Origin: Tidjanibacter sp.
GTDB lineage: Bacteria; Bacteroidota; Bacteroidia; Bacteroidales; Rikenellaceae
Direction: 5' to 3'
Assembly: GCA_045614965.1 (NCBI GenBank)
Contig: JAZLDY010000029.1
Span: 14,814-78,813, forward strand
Length of the DNA: 64,000 bases
The notes below the pieces were generated by a model. The model had not been told where the DNA came from. It made no database searches and saw only the letters and a program-made list of their open reading frames with translations. Shown piece by piece: positions 1,269 to 41,737 of the stretch (position 1 is its first letter; every line of letters begins with the position of its first letter). A program made the translations under genes and the position numbers.

Positions 1269-1362
1269 GCGTAGTTGAATACTACAAGGTTTCTTCATTT
1301 ATTTAAGTTTGGGTTAGTAGTTTTGAAAAGGTAGCCGTTGTGATAACGCCTACCTTTTTTTT
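1269..1362 (+). ncRNA. Candidate sRNA A (about 95 nt)
   Basis: Lies between the sigma54 box and an intrinsic terminator (AAAAGGTAG...CTACCTTTTTTTT, 1326-1362); no ORF; contains GGTTAGTAGTTTT. Confidence 0.55.
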
Positions 1363-1380
1363 GTTTTGGTTGAGTGATTT

Positions 1381-1494
1381 TGGGAGTGTAGGGAGTGTAG
1401 GGAGTGTAGGGAGTGTAGGGAAGAGTCCTTAATGCCCTTAACTTCTCTAACCTCCCTAACCTCCCTAACTTCTCTAAATTCCCTAAATTCCCTT
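1381..1494. repeat. 9-mer tandem array with inverted arms, (AGGGAGTGT)n then (CTCCCTAAC)-like
   Basis: Directly visible; five GGG runs at 1382-1420; the C-rich arm overlaps the stop of the four-helix gene. Confidence 0.9.
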
Positions 1495-2040
1495 GATTCC
1501 CCTATTCTGCACCCTCATTCTATACATACGCTCCTTGAATCCACCCTCATTCACAAAGCGGCTAGATAGTGATTTGAGTAGCTGATGTAAGAGATAATCC
1601 TCTTGTTTGATGAGAATGATTGCCATATTTGCCACCGTGTCGAGAGGGCGTGATTTTGCGATAGTCAGAATGTGGGCATTGTTTCCTTCAATGCCAAGTT
1701 TGCGCATCGCTACATACTCTTTCGATGTTGCTTCCCATTGCGCATAGCCATTGACACGCAAGAAATCCTCATAGTCAGATAGTAGCTCTTGAAAACTTGC
1801 TTTGGCAACATTCAGCAATTTAATGCCCATTTCGAGTGAGGTTTCAATGTCGGCATTACCCTCTACAATGTTTTGTTTTCCAGAGCGAGCAGCTTGCACC
1901 ATTTGGTCAATCGTACGATTGCCTTTTTCGAAGGCGGCGTGTGCAAAGTGATATGTTATATCAAAAAGCAGTTCAGCTTTACGATAACATATTAAATTGT
2001 GATGGTCGCCTTGACGTTTGATTAACTCGTTGGTGTTCAT
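1483..2040 (-). CDS. Four-helix-bundle protein (23S rRNA IVP/Avd-like) with suffix domain
   Basis: NLICYRKAELLFD, RTIDQMVQAARSGKQNIVEG, LLNVAKASFQELLSDYEDFL, FVNEGGFKERM; low GC; start placed at MNTNEL. Confidence 0.85.
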   Translation of the reverse strand: MNTNELIKRQGDHHNLICYRKAELLFDITYHFAHAAFEKGNRTIDQMVQAARSGKQNIVEGNADIETSLEMGIKLLNVAKASFQELLSDYEDFLRVNGYAQWEATSKEYVAMRKLGIEGNNAHILTIAKSRPLDTVANMAIILIKQEDYLLHQLLKSLSSRFVNEGGFKERMYRMRVQNRGIKGI

Positions 2041-2106
2041 TGCAAAAGTCTTTCCTACAAAAATATTGTATTTGCAAGACTCTTGCAAGAGCTGCTTGGT
2101 TTTTTG

Positions 2107-2197
2107 TGGGGAGATTAGGGAATTTAGTGAAATTAGGGAGTTTAAGGAATTGCAAATACCATTTCCCTAACCTCTCAACACTCCCTAATCTCCCTAT
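2107..2197. repeat. 9-mer array with inverted arms on the 5' side of the four-helix gene
   Basis: GGGAGATTAGGGAATTTAG... followed by CCCTAACCTCTCAACACTCCCTAATCTCCCTA. Confidence 0.8.
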
Positions 2198-2947: not shown

Positions 2948-3029
2948 GTTGTTTTTGTGTTTTAAGTTAAACAATAAGGTTTCGTAGTCAGCAGATGACA
3001 ACCGTTTAACTTAAATAGGTGGAGTCCTA

Positions 3030-3235
3030 AAAAAGAAACGTGGGTGCGCCTGATGTAACAAGGTACGACCAAGCACCCACAAAAACACAAGCACAACCCA
3101 CGCCATACAGCGTGAGCATTCAGCGTGCCTATTGGTGTTTTTGTTTCTAAAAATTGGTCGTTTTTGTTACAAACCCAACAGCCCTAAATGCCATCTATAA
3201 ACACTGCGTATTCCGCAATGCCACTACAAATATAA
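3030..3235 (-). promoter_or_regulatory. Promoter plus structured leader with terminator hairpin
   Basis: -7 box TATATTTG (3228-3235); GTGGGTGC/GCACCCAC hairpin followed by a U-tract; long-range complement 3154-3170 with 3055-3072. Confidence 0.6.
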
Positions 3236-3288
3236 GATTTTTTTTAGACAATCGCACTTCTTCCCATTTTTACTTTGCCCCAACCCCA

Positions 3289-3321
3289 CAATTTTGCATT
3301 TTCAATTTTCCATTTTCAATT
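3289..3321. repeat. Heptamer array (ATTTTC[A/C])n
   Basis: caattttgcattttcaattttccattttcaatt. Confidence 0.8.
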
Positions 3322-3344
3322 CGTTGTAGTACTTTTGTGCTGTT

Positions 3345-3773
3345 ATGGGACGAATTTTGGCAATAGACTACGGTTTGAAGCGTACGGGTGTGGCGGTGAG
3401 CGACCCGTTGCGCATCATTGCCGGTGGGCTCGACACCGTGCCTACCGCCACTCTCGAAGCGTGGCTCGCACAATATTTCGCCCAAAATGAGGTTGATATT
3501 ATTGTGGTGGGCAAGCCTACCCAGATGAACGGCAACCCCAGCCAGTCGTGGGCAGCCATTGAGCCCTTCGTGGAACGTTTGCGCAAACAGTACCCCACAA
3601 AGCAGGTCGTTCTCCACGACGAGAGGTTTACCTCCGTAATCGCCCACCGAGCAATGATTGACGGCGGTATAAAGAAGATGGCCCGCAGGGACAAGGCTGT
3701 GGTGGACAAGATTAGTGCAACCATAATTTTGCAGAGTTTTATGGACTCCGCAGAGTATAAAATGATGTTTTAA
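3345..3773 (+). CDS. ruvX: YqgF/RuvX family nuclease
   Basis: ILAIDYGLKRTGVAVSD, VVGKP, DERFTS, DKISATIILQ. Confidence 0.95.
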   Translation: MGRILAIDYGLKRTGVAVSDPLRIIAGGLDTVPTATLEAWLAQYFAQNEVDIIVVGKPTQMNGNPSQSWAAIEPFVERLRKQYPTKQVVLHDERFTSVIAHRAMIDGGIKKMARRDKAVVDKISATIILQSFMDSAEYKMMF

Positions 3774-4599: not shown

Positions 4600-5140
4600 G
4601 CTCGGCGAGGCCGCCGAGCGTAATTACGACCACCCCTCCCGTCCTCCCCTTTCGTAGGGGAGGGGTGTGTGAGGATGGAAGTTGAGGGCAGAACGGGCAG
4701 AAAGGGGAAGCTGCTCCCCTAAGGTAGGGGAGCTGTCGCAAAGCGACTGAGGGGTATGGTAGGTAGGGAAGGTGTCCGTCTTGCCACGACTGCCGTAGGC
4801 AGGCGGTTGGCATCTACCGCTCTTTATGTCAATCGACGGCTGGGGCCTCTGGATCTTCTGGGAGATGTTTGCTCTCCTCCCCTAACTCAGGGGAGGAGTG
4901 GTTGTGGTACTTCCTAACCTCCCTACGCTCCCTAAACCCCCTAAGGCCCCTACACTCCTACCACCTCACGGGTAACAAAAACATTACCCGTGAAGAAGGG
5001 GAGTCCCCTCCGAGGTCTTGGGTATTAAAAAAGATACCCGTGATTAAGAAAGGGCCTTAAAGTCCTTAAAGTCCCTATTGCCCCTATTGCCCCTATCATC
5101 CCAGTAGTCCCAGTAGTCCCAGCCGTCCCAGCCGCCCCCA
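4600..5140. repeat. Large intergenic mosaic of REP-like hairpins, CGGGTA palindromes and 9-mer arrays
   Basis: Hairpins at 4642, 4713 and 4874; palindromes at 4967-4992 and 5020-5040; C-rich 9-mer arrays at 4912-4960 and 5053-5140. Confidence 0.85.
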
Positions 5141-22601: not shown

Positions 22602-22835
22602 CGTCGACCGTCGACCGTCGACCGTCAACCGTCGACCGTCAACCGTCAACCGACAACCGTCAATTCAAAATGTTCCCACCCCTTTTCTCGGGTATCTTTT
22701 TTAATACCCGAGAGGTTGGGGAGTATTAGGAAGGTTTGGGAGCACCACAACCACCCCTCTCCTAAGTTAGGAGAGGTGCCCGAAGGGCGGAGAGGTGTGT
22801 CAATTTTCCATTTTCCATTTTCCATTTTCAATTTG
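22602..22835. repeat. Intergenic mosaic: (CCGTC[G/A]A)n, 22-bp palindrome, REP-like hairpin, (TTTTCCA)n
   Basis: All modules directly visible between dapD and birA. Confidence 0.9.
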
Positions 22836-38646: not shown

Positions 38647-39492
38647 ATGAAATACTTTGGAGCACACGTCAGCGCAGCAGGGGGAGTTCAGAATGCCCCC
38701 ATAAATGCGCACAACATAGGGGCTACGGCCTTTGCACTCTTCACCAAAAACCAACGCCAATGGTTTGCACCCTCGCTCTCGGAGCGAGATGTTGAGGCCT
38801 TCCGTGAGGAGTGCGAGAGGTTGGGCTACAAACCCTTTCAGATTCTTCCCCACGACTCCTACCTCATCAATCTCGGACACCCCGACGAGGAAGGCCTGCT
38901 CAAATCCCGTGGCTCGTTTATTGAGGAAATGGCTCGCTGTGAGCAGTTGGGCCTCGATAGGCTTAATTTTCACCCGGGTAGCCACTTGGGGCGCATAGGG
39001 CTTGACGAGTGCCTCGACCGTGTGGCCGAGAGCATCAACATTGCCCTTGACAAGACCAAGGGGGTTACGGCTGTGATTGAGAACACCGCAGGTCAGGGCT
39101 CCAATGTGGGCTTTGCGTTTGAGCACATCGCCCACATTATAGACCGTGTGGAGGACAAGTCGAGGGTGGGCTATTGCATAGACACCTGCCACGCCTTTGC
39201 CGCAGGCTACGACCTCTCGTCGGCCGAGGCTTGCGAGAAGACCTTTGCACAGATTGACAACATCATATCGCTCGACTACCTGCGTGGTATGCACCTCAAC
39301 GAGGCTATGCGCCCGCTGGGTAGCCACATCGACCGCCACGAAAGGCTCGGGCACGGACAAATTGGCTGGGAGTGTTTTGAGTACATCGCTCGCAACCCAC
39401 GATTTGACAATATGCCCCTTGTGCTCGAAACCATCGACGAGAGCCTTTGGCCCGAGGAGATTGCCCGCTTGAAGGCTCTTGCAGGAGTTTAG
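38647..39492 (+). CDS. nfo: Endonuclease IV
   Basis: [41 protein letters not shown]. Confidence 0.97.
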
Positions 39493-39568
39493 GGAGTTTA
39501 GGGAGATTAGGGAGTTTAGGGAGTGTTTATCTCTAACCTCCCTAAATTCTTTACATTCCCTAAATTCT
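39484..39568. repeat. 9-mer array with inverted arms, (TTAGGGAG[T/A])n / (CTCCCTAAA)-like
   Basis: Four GGG runs with 6-nt loops at 39492-39521; lies between convergent nfo and ndk. Confidence 0.9.
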
Positions 39569-39585
39569 CCTATTTCCCACGCCCC

Positions 39586-41349: not shown

Positions 41350-41444
41350 AAAATTGAAAATTGAAAATTGAAAATTGAAAATTATTGATTTTTATCGATT
41401 TACTATAACTCTCAATTCTCAATTCTCAATTCTCAATTCTCAAT
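41350..41444. repeat. Inverted pair of heptamer arrays (AAAATTG)n ... (AATTCTC)n
   Basis: Directly visible. Confidence 0.9.
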
Positions 41445-41737
41445 TACATCTCCTCTTCCACGTTCCACACAAAGGCCCTCATACCTTGCAGTTGGGTATC
41501 TTTGTCGATGGCACGCAGGGCCTCCATTGTGGGTGCAATTTTGGAGTCCTCCACCACGGCTATAACCGTGGTGTTCATCGCAGGCCAAGTGTGGCTACCC
41601 ATATGTGGCTCGCCTGTGTAGGAGCCCCTACCGTGGGTGAGCGGAAAGAGGGTGTAGCCCCTGATGCCCTGCTCGTCGAGGAGTGCCTCAATGCGTTCGG
41701 TCATCGCCTGATTGTAGGATATAAATAGTGCTTTCAT
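41444..41737 (-). CDS. PG0541-family transporter-associated protein (P-II-like)
   Basis: GRGSYTGEPHMGSHTWPAMN; last gene of the RND operon. Confidence 0.8.
   Translation of the reverse strand: MKALFISYNQAMTERIEALLDEQGIRGYTLFPLTHGRGSYTGEPHMGSHTWPAMNTTVIAVVEDSKIAPTMEALRAIDKDTQLQGMRAFVWNVEEEM

Follow-up and report, generated by a model that had tools for sequence, protein, structure and literature searches.

A four-helix-bundle gene framed by nonamer repeat hairpins in Tidjanibacter, a candidate cassette resembling rRNA intervening sequences

The window, the whole stretch of 64,000 nucleotides of Tidjanibacter sp. DNA analysed here (contig JAZLDY010000029.1), carries at 1382-2197 a compact element whose neighbours are, on one side, a PepSY-like gene with its sRNA-like terminator module and, on the other, an outer-membrane-like gene. 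The element is composed of a single four-helix-bundle (4HB) gene with a 5' region of its own, set between arms of nine-nucleotide units. The genome holding the window is referred to as G000, and congeneric genomes by other G-numbers. The features, in the direction of the gene and ending with the adjoining boundary, are as follows.

2164-2197, minus strand: outer 5' arm G1, four imperfect G-rich nonamers, on the sense strand TAGGGAGAT TAGGGAGTG TTGAGAGGT TAGGGAAAT
2110-2151, minus strand: inner 5' arm C1, its sense strand C-rich and its plus strand (TTAGGGAAT)x4.1
2041-2109, minus strand: the cassette's own 5' region, with a palindrome and a putative -7 box
1483-2040, minus strand: suffix-type 4HB gene, 185 aa, pI 8.9, basic C-terminal tail
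1427-1501, minus strand: inner 3' arm G2, sense-strand units (GGGAATTTA/GGGAGGTTA/GAGAAGTTA)x8, TRF period 9, 8.2 copies
1382-1421, minus strand: outer 3' arm C2, sense-strand units (TACACTCCC)x4.4, 100% matches in TRF
1284-1377, plus strand: boundary element, a conserved sRNA-like module with a terminator hairpin at its end

The gene is bracketed on both sides by hairpins of a G-rich and a C-rich 9-mer arm, as the first-pass annotation had proposed: TRF calls the arrays, and the flanking hairpins fold at -38 to -52 kcal/mol, with z-scores of -4.6 to -8.6 against shuffled sequence. TRF places C1 at 2115-2151 (period 9, (TTAGGGAAT)x4.1) and C2 at 1382-1421 ((GGGAGTGTA)x4.4). G1 is too imperfect for TRF and pairs with 2110-2151 (-41.1 kcal/mol, z -6.9, minus strand). 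G2 overlaps the final six codons and the stop codon of the gene, the TAG stop falling within a repeat unit. A fold of the whole element brings the outer arms together on either side of the gene, in a terminal inverted-repeat stem of the kind seen in 23S rRNA intervening sequences (IVSs). Duplex energies of the two strands, sense and antisense, show no asymmetry of the kind that favouring G-U pairs on one strand would cause; this strand test is uninformative for an RNA stem, and an RNA-level role is thus not favoured over a DNA-level one. At the gathering score, the Rfam scan of the window returned two tRNAs, no rRNA and no family at the hairpins, and within 1200-2400 it gave generic hairpin matches only, far below gathering. 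The 5' region contains a 12-bp palindrome (CTCTTGCAAGAG, 2080-2091) and, 17 nt upstream of the ATG, a -7 box of the Bacteroidetes type, TAnnTTTG (TATTTTTG, 2065-2058). The block 2041-2109 is also conserved 5' of the orthologues in G003, G023 and G055, and its sequence suggests a promoter-like region of the 4HB gene. At the other end, the sequence remains similar to that of G010 and G004, the closest relatives, only as far as 1365-1368, just short of the first repeat. The C2 array of G003 runs to 13 copies or more and interrupts the assembly, with contigs C49 and C15 both ending inside it; the C15 match, considered as a relocated second copy, was rejected as the same PepSY-adjacent locus split at this break. 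Such arrays break short-read assemblies, and for many homologues the contig is 600-1500 bp long, so that cassettes are systematically under-assembled in metagenomes.

The product of 1483-2040 matches the four helix bundle suffix domain TIGR04258 with 66.6 bits over residues 151-196 of a 201-aa ORF (cut-off 40), and with 69.1 bits in the whole-genome search of G000, which puts the suffix domain at the C-terminus of a TIGR02436-type protein. TIGR02436 itself is passed marginally (24.0 and 24.6 bits, cut-off 24). The PF05635 score of 25.1 bits is below the gathering score of 33.8, and a precomputed PF05635 match is present in many close homologues. The AF2 model of a single chain is all-helical (pLDDT 87.5, pTM 0.80), and its best Foldseek matches in the PDB are four chains of 2GSC (Xcc0516; prob 1.00, TMt 0.76-0.79, E only 0.12); a profile search of the PDB sequences gave no match, so the link to 2GSC comes from the fold search alone. 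As modelled, the protein matches the fold of solved TIGR02436/PF05635 members, compare the Xcc0516/S23p pentamer subunit, and the first assignment to a four-helix-bundle (IVP/Avd-like) fold stands. This fold family includes the 23S rRNA intervening-sequence proteins and Avd, pentamers that bind nucleic acid. PMC4990558, citing Lin 2006, gives PF05635-family proteins as pentameric rings. Only four-helix-bundle families match the product, which has no recognisable catalytic domain, and searches of PADLOC and PHROGs gave no match for the gene. The low GC content remarked on at first holds against the window (42.5% versus 52.8%), but the adjoining 255-aa gene is equally AT-rich.

Furthermore, the window contains gene-less elements built of similar units:

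39484-39572, unstranded: nonamer hairpin without a gene, units of the 1382-2197 family, (GGAGTTTAG)x4.6, loop, (TCCCTAAAT)x3.7
4913-5131, unstranded: mosaic of single C-rich nonamer arms of the families CCCTAAACC, CCTTAAAGT, CCCTATTGC and TCCCAGTAG, with REP-like palindromes
41350-41445, unstranded: gene-less heptamer hairpin, (AAAATTG)x5, 26 nt, (TCTCAAT)x5

The element at 39484, noticed earlier as an apparent empty site, is confirmed as a gene-less G-arm/C-arm hairpin (z -8.3 and -6.7), whose first unit contains the stop codon of the upstream gene. It is present in G050 and G010 and absent from G019, and G004 has one G and one C unit in 13 bp; a filled allele with a gene was found at this site in none of 47 genomes. 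At 4912-5140, where the same element had been seen in part, the C-rich single arms of several nonamer families are real, but TRF and folding give no hairpin. The heptamer hairpin at 41350-41445 folds at -38.5 kcal/mol (z -9.9, minus strand), and its arm family is that of short 4HB cassettes.

TRF finds about 785 period-7 or period-9 arrays in the 1.92 Mb of G000, so that closeness to an array is by itself weak evidence. As background, arrays adjoin one end of 31% of 1561 crude genes and both ends of 5%, and 0.9% are enclosed by a matching inverted pair; of the 4HB genes, four of four have arrays at both ends and three of four a matching inverted pair. Across ordinary genes, inverted array pairs are not in excess over direct ones, and the other genes inside inverted arrays are ordinary housekeeping genes, no commoner than the 0.7% background. 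All four TIGR02436 matches of G000 are array-flanked, each by a different unit family, and these flanking families are also abundant dispersed families of the genome; two of its 4HB cassettes are heptamer-armed (C24, C33). Perfect repeats of at least three copies number 198 at period 7 and 67 at period 9, with at most 6 each at periods 5, 6, 8, 10 and 11. The most abundant family, AAAATTG, is without a cognate gene in G000, and the site that is filled in relatives is decayed there. The arrays are intergenic and somewhat enriched between convergent genes; some families are orientation-biased relative to transcription, and the AAAATTG and AAACTCCCT families show no such bias.

The genus survey covers 77 4HB genes from 47 congeners. 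The short ones, about 41, are all enclosed by inverted heptamer arrays that differ by 0-1 mismatch (2 once), and about 32 suffix-type genes adjoin nonamer arrays, as is true of every clear suffix-type gene for which a flanking array was detected. The 32 genes represent about 25 distinct loci and the 41 heptamer genes 7, with one locus per heptamer family, so that the match of unit and protein within the genus could be plain co-inheritance. At three paralogous loci, related proteins are accompanied by the related units AATTGAG, AATTGAA and AGTTGAA. Beyond the genus, PF05635/TIGR02436 proteins occur in 160 of 201 sampled genomes of the order, and in 30 further genera 28 of 30 loci have arrays directly at the gene ends, with few further arrays in the surrounding 3 kb. 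Other members of the order have short 4HB genes with periods of 6, 8 and 9 as well; the core fold therefore does not rigidly fix the period. In the phylum-level sample of suffix-type genes, the flanking arrays are nearly all of period 9 or 18 and none is of period 7. Among 80 suffix loci sampled in Bacteroidota, Verrucomicrobiota, Planctomycetota and other groups, 66 are accompanied by flanking arrays, and the 130 arrays there have periods of 9/18/27 (96 arrays), 10/20/30 (21) and 7 (3). The arms of the cassettes have a median of 4.4-4.8 units. The repeat period thus follows protein architecture, short proteins with 7 and suffix proteins with 9, and arm complementarity is retained while the unit sequences diverge.

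Orthologous loci provide both filled and empty alleles, a comparison that the first-pass annotation had proposed as a check. The lysS-tpiA locus is filled in about 12 genomes and empty in more than 20, its filled and empty alleles having different array families, and the GT-CBS locus is polymorphic too; in four species, the GT-CBS slot holds a DUF559 endonuclease gene between inverted REP-like elements instead. Fixation at the 1382-2197 locus, which would have spoken against a cassette, is not seen: G003, G023 and G045 carry the gene, and in G010 and G004 it is absent past position 1368. A decayed cassette in G000 (C24:3117-3363) has lost all of its ORF but the final 45 nt, with both arms retained. 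The 4HB gene of G004 is 99% identical to that of G000 and its flanks are 86-90% identical; the single recent transfer resembles an exchange by homologous recombination in which the locus stays the same. Comparing filled with empty alleles reveals whole-intergenic replacement with no target-site duplication; no transposase was found in or beside the cassettes, and neither an enzyme nor direct movement of a cassette was seen. Gene and arms are kept, lost and replaced as one unit, a decaying cassette leaves arms without a gene, and cassettes are accessory and apparently pass between related species through homologous recombination. The initial idea of a transposase-free mobile cassette survives in that the gene travels with its own arms, but movement between pre-existing repeat elements finds no support: the site at 39484 is never filled among 47 genomes, and the array families of the lysS-tpiA alleles differ. 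The expected relation between 4HB gene and array counts is also found across the 47 congeners (heptamers, rho 0.78; nonamers, rho 0.66; both confounded by phylogeny). All 13 array-free congeners are without 4HB genes; G007 and G011 have more than 100 heptamer arrays and no short 4HB gene, and G048 and G013, which also carry arrays, lack 4HB genes of any type.

We favour, at a probability of about 0.5, the reading of 1382-2197 as an IVS-like gene-in-a-stem, a transposase-free cassette whose protein probably recognises its own repeats. Such a cassette would consist of the suffix-type gene and its promoter-like region with a G-arm/C-arm nonamer hairpin on each side, the outer arms also being able to pair and enclose the whole gene, and would be the nonamer sister of the heptamer-armed gene-in-a-stem module. 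We postulate that the arms would form a stem in RNA or single-stranded DNA, and that this stem would insulate or process the insert, by analogy with RNase III acting on rRNA intervening sequences. The ring-forming, mildly basic protein would recognise its own repeat arrays, of the type (GGGAGTTTA)n, and the C-terminal suffix domain would set the 9-nt register. Cassettes may also be the source of many of the gene-less arrays of G000, which number in the hundreds, or their proteins may act on these arrays.

The 23S rRNA IVSs, which sit in helix 9, 25 or 45, are the closest known parallel. Like them (Coxiella burnetii S23p; Leptospira; PMC4990558), in which the ORF is of the PF05635 family, the element has a 4HB ORF in the loop of a predicted long inverted-repeat stem. 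The Coxiella IVS has a 28-bp terminal stem and tandem heptamers before the S23p ORF and is excised by RNase III; the arm by the start codon consists of these heptamers, with a copy number that varies among strains, and IVS elements are regarded as selfish and possibly mobile, with no transposase known (PMC4990558). Unlike an IVS, 1382-2197 lies outside rRNA amid protein-coding genes, has nonamer units and a G-arm/C-arm hairpin on each side, and adds to the protein a TIGR04258 suffix domain and to the gene its own promoter-like region. The heptamer 4HB cassettes outside rRNA share the gene between inverted tandem arrays; the nonamer cassette differs in its period of 9 instead of 7, in a protein about 65 residues longer, and in usually forming two local hairpins where heptamer cassettes form one long-range stem. 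The only described cases of the heptamer-armed module are the ORF-bearing 23S rRNA IVSs, and our full-text searches found no literature linking 4HB genes to flanking tandem arrays outside rRNA. In contrast to MITE and IS elements, the cassettes have neither target-site duplication nor cognate transposase. Abundant intergenic 7-9-nt tandem repeats with a patchy phylogeny are otherwise known as long simple-sequence repeats, such as the cyanobacterial STRR heptamers, the TAACTGA repeats (PMC4679880) and the G-rich heptamers of Xanthomonas and Nostoc (PMC4692102). These two papers tie the repeats to no protein family, whereas the two periods of the cassette arrays match two 4HB classes and their counts track the genes.

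A broader reading, which we put forward tentatively and at clearly less than even odds, takes the 4HB proteins as trans-acting partners of 7-10-nt arrays, with architecture setting the register (the core bundle with 7 nt, the bundle plus TIGR04258 suffix with 9 nt), the cassettes being autonomous and the gene-less arrays their non-autonomous products. The link between protein type and period fits the idea of a ring protein reading repeats, for which recognition is predicted.

It is rather unlikely that the system is REP/RAYT-like, with 4HB proteins and host replication or repair enzymes making and spreading arrays, the gene-bearing copies being autonomous and the gene-less arrays and hairpins their non-autonomous derivatives. 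As in REP/RAYT (REPIN) systems, a single-copy gene lies between inverted copies of a dispersed repeat family, each gene having its own, among hundreds of gene-less intergenic copies (about 785 arrays against four genes, with the gene-flanking families abundantly dispersed). Only periods 7 and 9, those of both 4HB classes present, are amplified, the array-free congeners (13 of 13) are without 4HB genes and the counts correlate (rho 0.78, 0.66), and the 39484 hairpin is itself an insertion/deletion polymorphism with one unit per arm in G004. However, a RAYT is a Y1 (HUH) transposase, whereas the 1483-2040 product is a small helical bundle without catalytic motif, and the cassette repeats are tandem arrays of 7- or 9-nt units and not single palindromic units. 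Some genomes are array-rich without a cognate gene, AAAATTG, the most abundant family, is without one in G000 and the relatives' site is decayed, and no new array or gain in copy number is tied to gene presence.

We consider it unlikely that the protein is a host regulator, a TRAP-like ring that reads units in transcripts genome-wide and controls termination or stability at the many arrays between genes, with the flanking arrays only autoregulatory. TRAP, a ring protein on evenly spaced repeats, offers an analogy only, its fold being unrelated and binding by the 4HB protein putative. The pentameric rings of the family (2GSC), the median of 4.4-4.8 units per arm, the intergenic, somewhat convergent-enriched and in some families orientation-biased arrays, and the link of protein type to repeat period would all suit such a role. 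The gene is nevertheless accessory and often lost though arrays persist, and units differ among copies in one genome, so that each protein would serve an array subset only; the AAAATTG and AAACTCCCT families lack orientation bias, and arm pairing lacks strand asymmetry.

Quite unlikely, in our judgement, is a horizontally acquired gene, inherited along with its repeats, for which the repeats are mere insulation, terminator-like or recombination-prone, the protein having an unrelated role, for example in toxin-antitoxin or defence systems. Low GC and patchy distribution agree with this, and the DUF559 gene in the GT-CBS slot of four species indicates that the slot tolerates varied repeat-flanked cargo. 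Yet the architecture-specific period is held across phyla despite complete change of the unit, inverted arms are found at every short-gene locus of the genus, PADLOC and PHROGs give no match, and the other G000 genes with inverted arrays are housekeeping genes at no more than the 0.7% background.

Mere coincidence, a gene in a repeat-rich intergenic region of a genome where nearly one gene in three has an array to one side, is highly improbable: 785 arrays in 1.92 Mb do bracket many housekeeping genes, but the genus survey and the order- and phylum-level samples refute it (four of four 4HB genes with arrays at both ends versus 5% in G000, 28 of 30 loci in other genera with few other arrays in the surrounding 3 kb, 66 of 80 loci over several phyla). 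Next to negligible is an Avd-type accessory protein of a diversity-generating retroelement: the fold family (PF05635) is shared and Avd is likewise a pentameric nucleic-acid-binding ring, but the cassette has no reverse transcriptase, template repeat or variable repeat, none of the four G000 genes has a reverse transcriptase nearby, and the sole RVT_1 match in G000, considered as retroelement partner or array generator, is a contaminating plant Ty3/gypsy gag-protease-RT fragment (contig C4), leaving no bacterial reverse transcriptase in the genome and the Avd link of the first-pass annotation at the level of fold.

PF05635/TIGR02436 proteins are among the commonest small bacterial proteins of unknown function, and short tandem heptamer and nonamer arrays are a genomic oddity noted for long, with an unexplained origin. 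The 1382-2197 locus and its relatives join the two by a falsifiable rule, in which architecture predicts period, and the genus supplies natural filled, empty and decayed alleles. If the 4HB proteins were indeed trans-acting partners of the arrays, the system would be an enzyme-poor analogue of REP/RAYT and would account for the heptamer and nonamer long simple-sequence repeats of many bacteria together with the origin of rRNA intervening sequences, on which the gene-in-a-stem cassette bears in any case.

The four-helix-bundle (4HB) cassette under study consists of a minus-strand gene and four arms, all built from a single unit family, the nonamer GGGAnnTTA. On the sense strand of the gene, its parts are arranged as follows:

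2197-2164, G-rich arm, outermost on the 5' side, nonamer array
2151-2110, C-rich arm, next on the sense strand, nonamer array
5' region of 69 nt between the C-rich arm and the gene, containing a palindrome of 12 bp and, 17 nt ahead of the ATG, a TAnnTTTG box
1483-2040, minus strand, gene, 185-aa open reading frame
1501-1427, G-rich arm on the 3' side, sense strand, overlapping the last six codons and providing the TAG stop
1421-1382, C-rich arm, outermost on the 3' side, nonamer array

The first-pass annotation had described a gene bracketed by 9-mer elements with G-rich and C-rich arms. Indeed, a nonamer hairpin stands on each side, its stability far above that of shuffled sequence (z -4.6 to -8.6), and folding of the whole element predicts that the outer arms pair and enclose the gene. 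The gene-less copy it had proposed is likewise present as a hairpin of the GGGAnnTTA family at 39484-39572. Its partial copy at 4912-5140 does contain C-rich arms (4913-5131), but these are single arms from several families. The G-rich nonamer arms at 1382-1421 and 39484-39524, of the form (GGG N6)n, fit the canonical G-quadruplex motif (G3N1-7 x4), so that a quadruplex and i-motif could compete with the hairpin; nonamer families lacking GGG allow no quadruplex competition.

The 185-aa protein is mildly basic (pI 8.9) with a very basic tail, and its gene is, as had been noted, AT-rich (42.5% GC, compared to 52.8% in the window). It scores 66.6 bits against the NCBIfam model TIGR04258 "four helix bundle suffix domain" (cut-off 40), 24.0 bits against TIGR02436, barely at the cut-off, and 25.1 bits against PF05635, under the Pfam gathering score. 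An AlphaFold2 model based on an alignment of 25 homologues is confident (pLDDT 87.5, pTM 0.80) and predicts an all-helical fold, in which three long helices are followed by an insert of two, then by a long fourth helix and one more at the C-terminus. In the PDB, the model comes closest to Xcc0516 of Xanthomonas, a pentameric S23p-family protein: four chains of its structure 2GSC match with prob 1.0 and TMt 0.76-0.79, at an E of only 0.12. Near homologues occur in Tidjanibacter, Alistipes, and Rikenellaceae MAGs, annotated as 'four helix bundle suffix domain-containing protein'.

A survey of 47 congeneric genomes gave 77 4HB matches, with 17 genomes lacking any; each of these loci was fetched and its flanks were analysed with TRF. 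The short 4HB genes (96-121 aa, approximately 41) all lie between mutually reverse-complementary heptamer arrays with at most one mismatch (two in a single case), formed by eight unit families, one per protein subfamily. Clear suffix-type genes, which carry the added TIGR04258 domain (approximately 32), adjoin nonamer arrays wherever a flanking array was detected, mostly as G-arm/C-arm hairpins. One weak match has no arrays, and its family membership is doubtful. Of 30 loci sampled across as many other genera of the order, 28 hold short 4HB genes with tandem arrays directly at their ends, mainly of period 7, also of 8, 9, 6, and 14, and few further arrays are seen in the surrounding 3 kb. Flanking arrays in a phylum-level TIGR04258 sample are nearly all of period 9 or 18, none of period 7. 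We observed flanking arrays at 66 of 80 named suffix-type loci from Bacteroidota, Verrucomicrobiota, Kiritimatiellae, Lentisphaerae, Planctomycetota, Ignavibacteriota, and others; across the 80 loci, 96 arrays have periods 9/18/27, 21 have periods 10/20/30, and three have period 7, each of these at least 76 bp away from the gene. The link between protein class and period persists despite a complete change of unit sequences, and because it is seen in other genera and phyla, it is independent of the array background of G000, the genome containing the window.

In G000 (1.92 Mb, 99.8% complete) there are 785 tandem arrays, 437 of period 7 and 348 of period 9. Perfect repeats with three or more copies number 198 at period 7 and 67 at period 9, and 14 at periods 5, 6, 8, 10, and 11 together. 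By crude gene calls, an array adjoins one end of 31% of G000 genes and both ends of 5%, and 0.9% are bracketed by a matching inverted pair, so array proximity alone is weak evidence; at ordinary genes, inverted array pairs are not in excess over direct pairs. Each of the four TIGR02436 matches in G000 is flanked by arrays on both sides, and three of them satisfy the inverted-match test. Two short 4HB genes carry heptamers (GAATTGA/CTCAATT and CGTCGAC/GACGGTA), and two suffix-type genes carry nonamers. That the dispersed arrays arose in a REP/RAYT-like manner is conceivable, if rather improbable. Relative to flanking co-directional genes, some units are strongly biased in orientation (GAGAATT 20:5, AAAATTC 17:4, CGACGGT 10:1, AACGTCT 0:7) and others are not (AAAATTG 29:28, AAACTCCCT 6:6). 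Regions between convergent genes hold 0.51 arrays each, those between divergent genes 0.30.

The relation between 4HB gene count and repeat count envisaged from the sequence was recovered across the 47 genomes: with kinship ignored, the number of short 4HB genes rises with that of AATT-core heptamer arrays (Spearman 0.78), and the number of suffix-type genes with that of GGG-core nonamer arrays (0.66). All 13 essentially array-free genomes are without 4HB genes. Exceptions are G007 and G011, each of which has over 100 heptamer arrays but lacks a short 4HB gene, and G048 and G013, with arrays and no 4HB gene at all.

Filled and empty alleles coexist at the lysS-tpiA locus, with approximately 12 genomes filled and more than 20 empty; flanks match those of G000 at 94-95% in the empty relative G004 and at 95% in the filled relatives G010 and G050. 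Filled alleles read (CGTCGAC)n-gene-(GACGGTA)n and empty ones carry one unrelated (ATTCAAA)n array, so the gene arrives with its own arms and the entire spacer is swapped. The GT-CBS locus is polymorphic too: some genomes carry a 4HB cassette there, some short arrays from different families, some no array, and four species a DUF559 endonuclease gene. There, the 4HB gene of G004 is 99% identical to that of G000 within flanks of 86-90% identity and adjoins what is left of an older copy, together with a 28-bp duplicate from the neighbouring gene; the sequence points to a recent import via homologous recombination. The DUF559 allele (G058, G051, G054, G042; fetched loci L053-L056) replaces the 4HB cassette with a 125-aa gene (97.8 bits) bracketed by inverted REP-like elements CACACGCCCCCGCCC..GGGCACCCCCTCTAACTTAGAGGGGG, a second type of repeat-bracketed small-gene cassette at this locus.

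The cassette under study is PepSY-adjacent in G003, G023, and G045. Similarity to the closest relatives, G010 (86%) and G004 (90%), stops at 1365-1368, just past a conserved terminator module, and other genes come next. The conserved module bounding the cassette (1284-1377) comprises TTTAAGTTTGGGTTAGTAGTTTTGAAA, followed by a hairpin (GGTAGCCG...CGCCTACC) with a T-run behind it. In G003 it stands twice on one side and once, inverted, on the other; in G010 and G004 it is enclosed by its own inverted repeat TCTTCATTTATTTAAGTTT / AAACTTAAATAAATGAAGA. It resembles a repeated sRNA or an element of MITE type. Elsewhere in the window, 428-683 is a repeated element of approximately 125-250 bp with many copies (85-98% identity) in G000 and most array-rich congeners, and 2960-3245, upstream of an AT-rich 255-aa gene, recurs at several loci of G000 and relatives (73-93% identity), possibly as a leader or promoter that these loci have in common. 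The intergenic mosaic at 22602-22834 follows a stop codon directly with (CGTCAAC)x9, then palindromes, a REP-like hairpin, and (ATTTTCC)x4.6; its module kinds reappear at 4600-5140.

On contig C24 of G000, 3117-3363 retains the two arms and, of a 4HB reading frame that is intact in nine other species, the final 45 nt, and gene-less arms can therefore be decayed cassettes. A repeat of approximately 170 bp (..CTCTGCTCTCGCTTACTCGCATTTGCC) abuts (CTCAATT)n / (AATTGAG)n at C24:9442-9621 and C24:3154-3222 and lies next to arrays at several loci in G000, G010, G050, and G004 (87-98% identity). The 32 suffix-type genes are spread over approximately 25 loci. Three paralogous loci share related proteins (at least 60% identity) and related units, so entire cassettes were copied to new sites in the past. 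The hairpin at 39484 is full in G000, G050, and G010, reduced to one G and one C unit in G004, and absent in G019; none of the 47 genomes has a gene there.

Among close relatives, the arm-gene-arm unit is gained, lost, and decaying, and it is this unit that is inherited, its arms staying complementary and its period fitting the protein architecture. The first-pass picture of a transposase-free cassette that may move between repeat elements, or of a ring protein that would read them, is partly supported. The gene is gained and lost with its arms; the 39484 hairpin is never filled, and at lysS-tpiA the spacer is replaced whole. Neither an enzyme nor a target duplication was found at the cassettes. 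Of the mechanisms considered, we favour an IVS-like gene-in-a-stem module (IVS, intervening sequence of 23S rRNA). We postulate that the arms would pair, by which the insert would be isolated or processed, that a ring-forming protein would recognise its own arrays, and that the suffix domain would go with the 9-nt register. Arm pairing has no sense/antisense asymmetry, and RNA is therefore not favoured over DNA. That the protein is instead a TRAP-like host regulator strikes us as unlikely, and that the repeats merely insulate unrelated cargo as less likely still. A role in a diversity-generating system, as for Avd, is excluded, since G000 has no bacterial reverse transcriptase; its sole reverse-transcriptase match, on contig C4 (L201), combines a gag zinc-knuckle, a retropepsin-like region, and RT, and looks like a plant Ty3/gypsy retrotransposon fragment, i.e. 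eukaryotic contamination of the assembly. Rfam, PADLOC, and PHROGs gave no match.

The nearest published case to the nonamer cassette is the Coxiella 23S rRNA IVS, which has a 28-bp terminal stem, is excised by RNase III, and carries variable-copy tandem heptamers preceding its S23p ORF (PMC4990558). Heptamer repeats of unexplained origin are described in PMC4679880 and PMC4692102, and full-text searches yielded no paper connecting four-helix-bundle genes with flanking arrays outside rRNA. Nonamer arms with a suffix-domain protein are a variant of a kind in print only from rRNA intervening sequences; to this kind we add the nonamer/suffix-domain class, the period rule across phyla, the filled, empty, and decayed allele set from 47 genomes, and the array-gene correlation.
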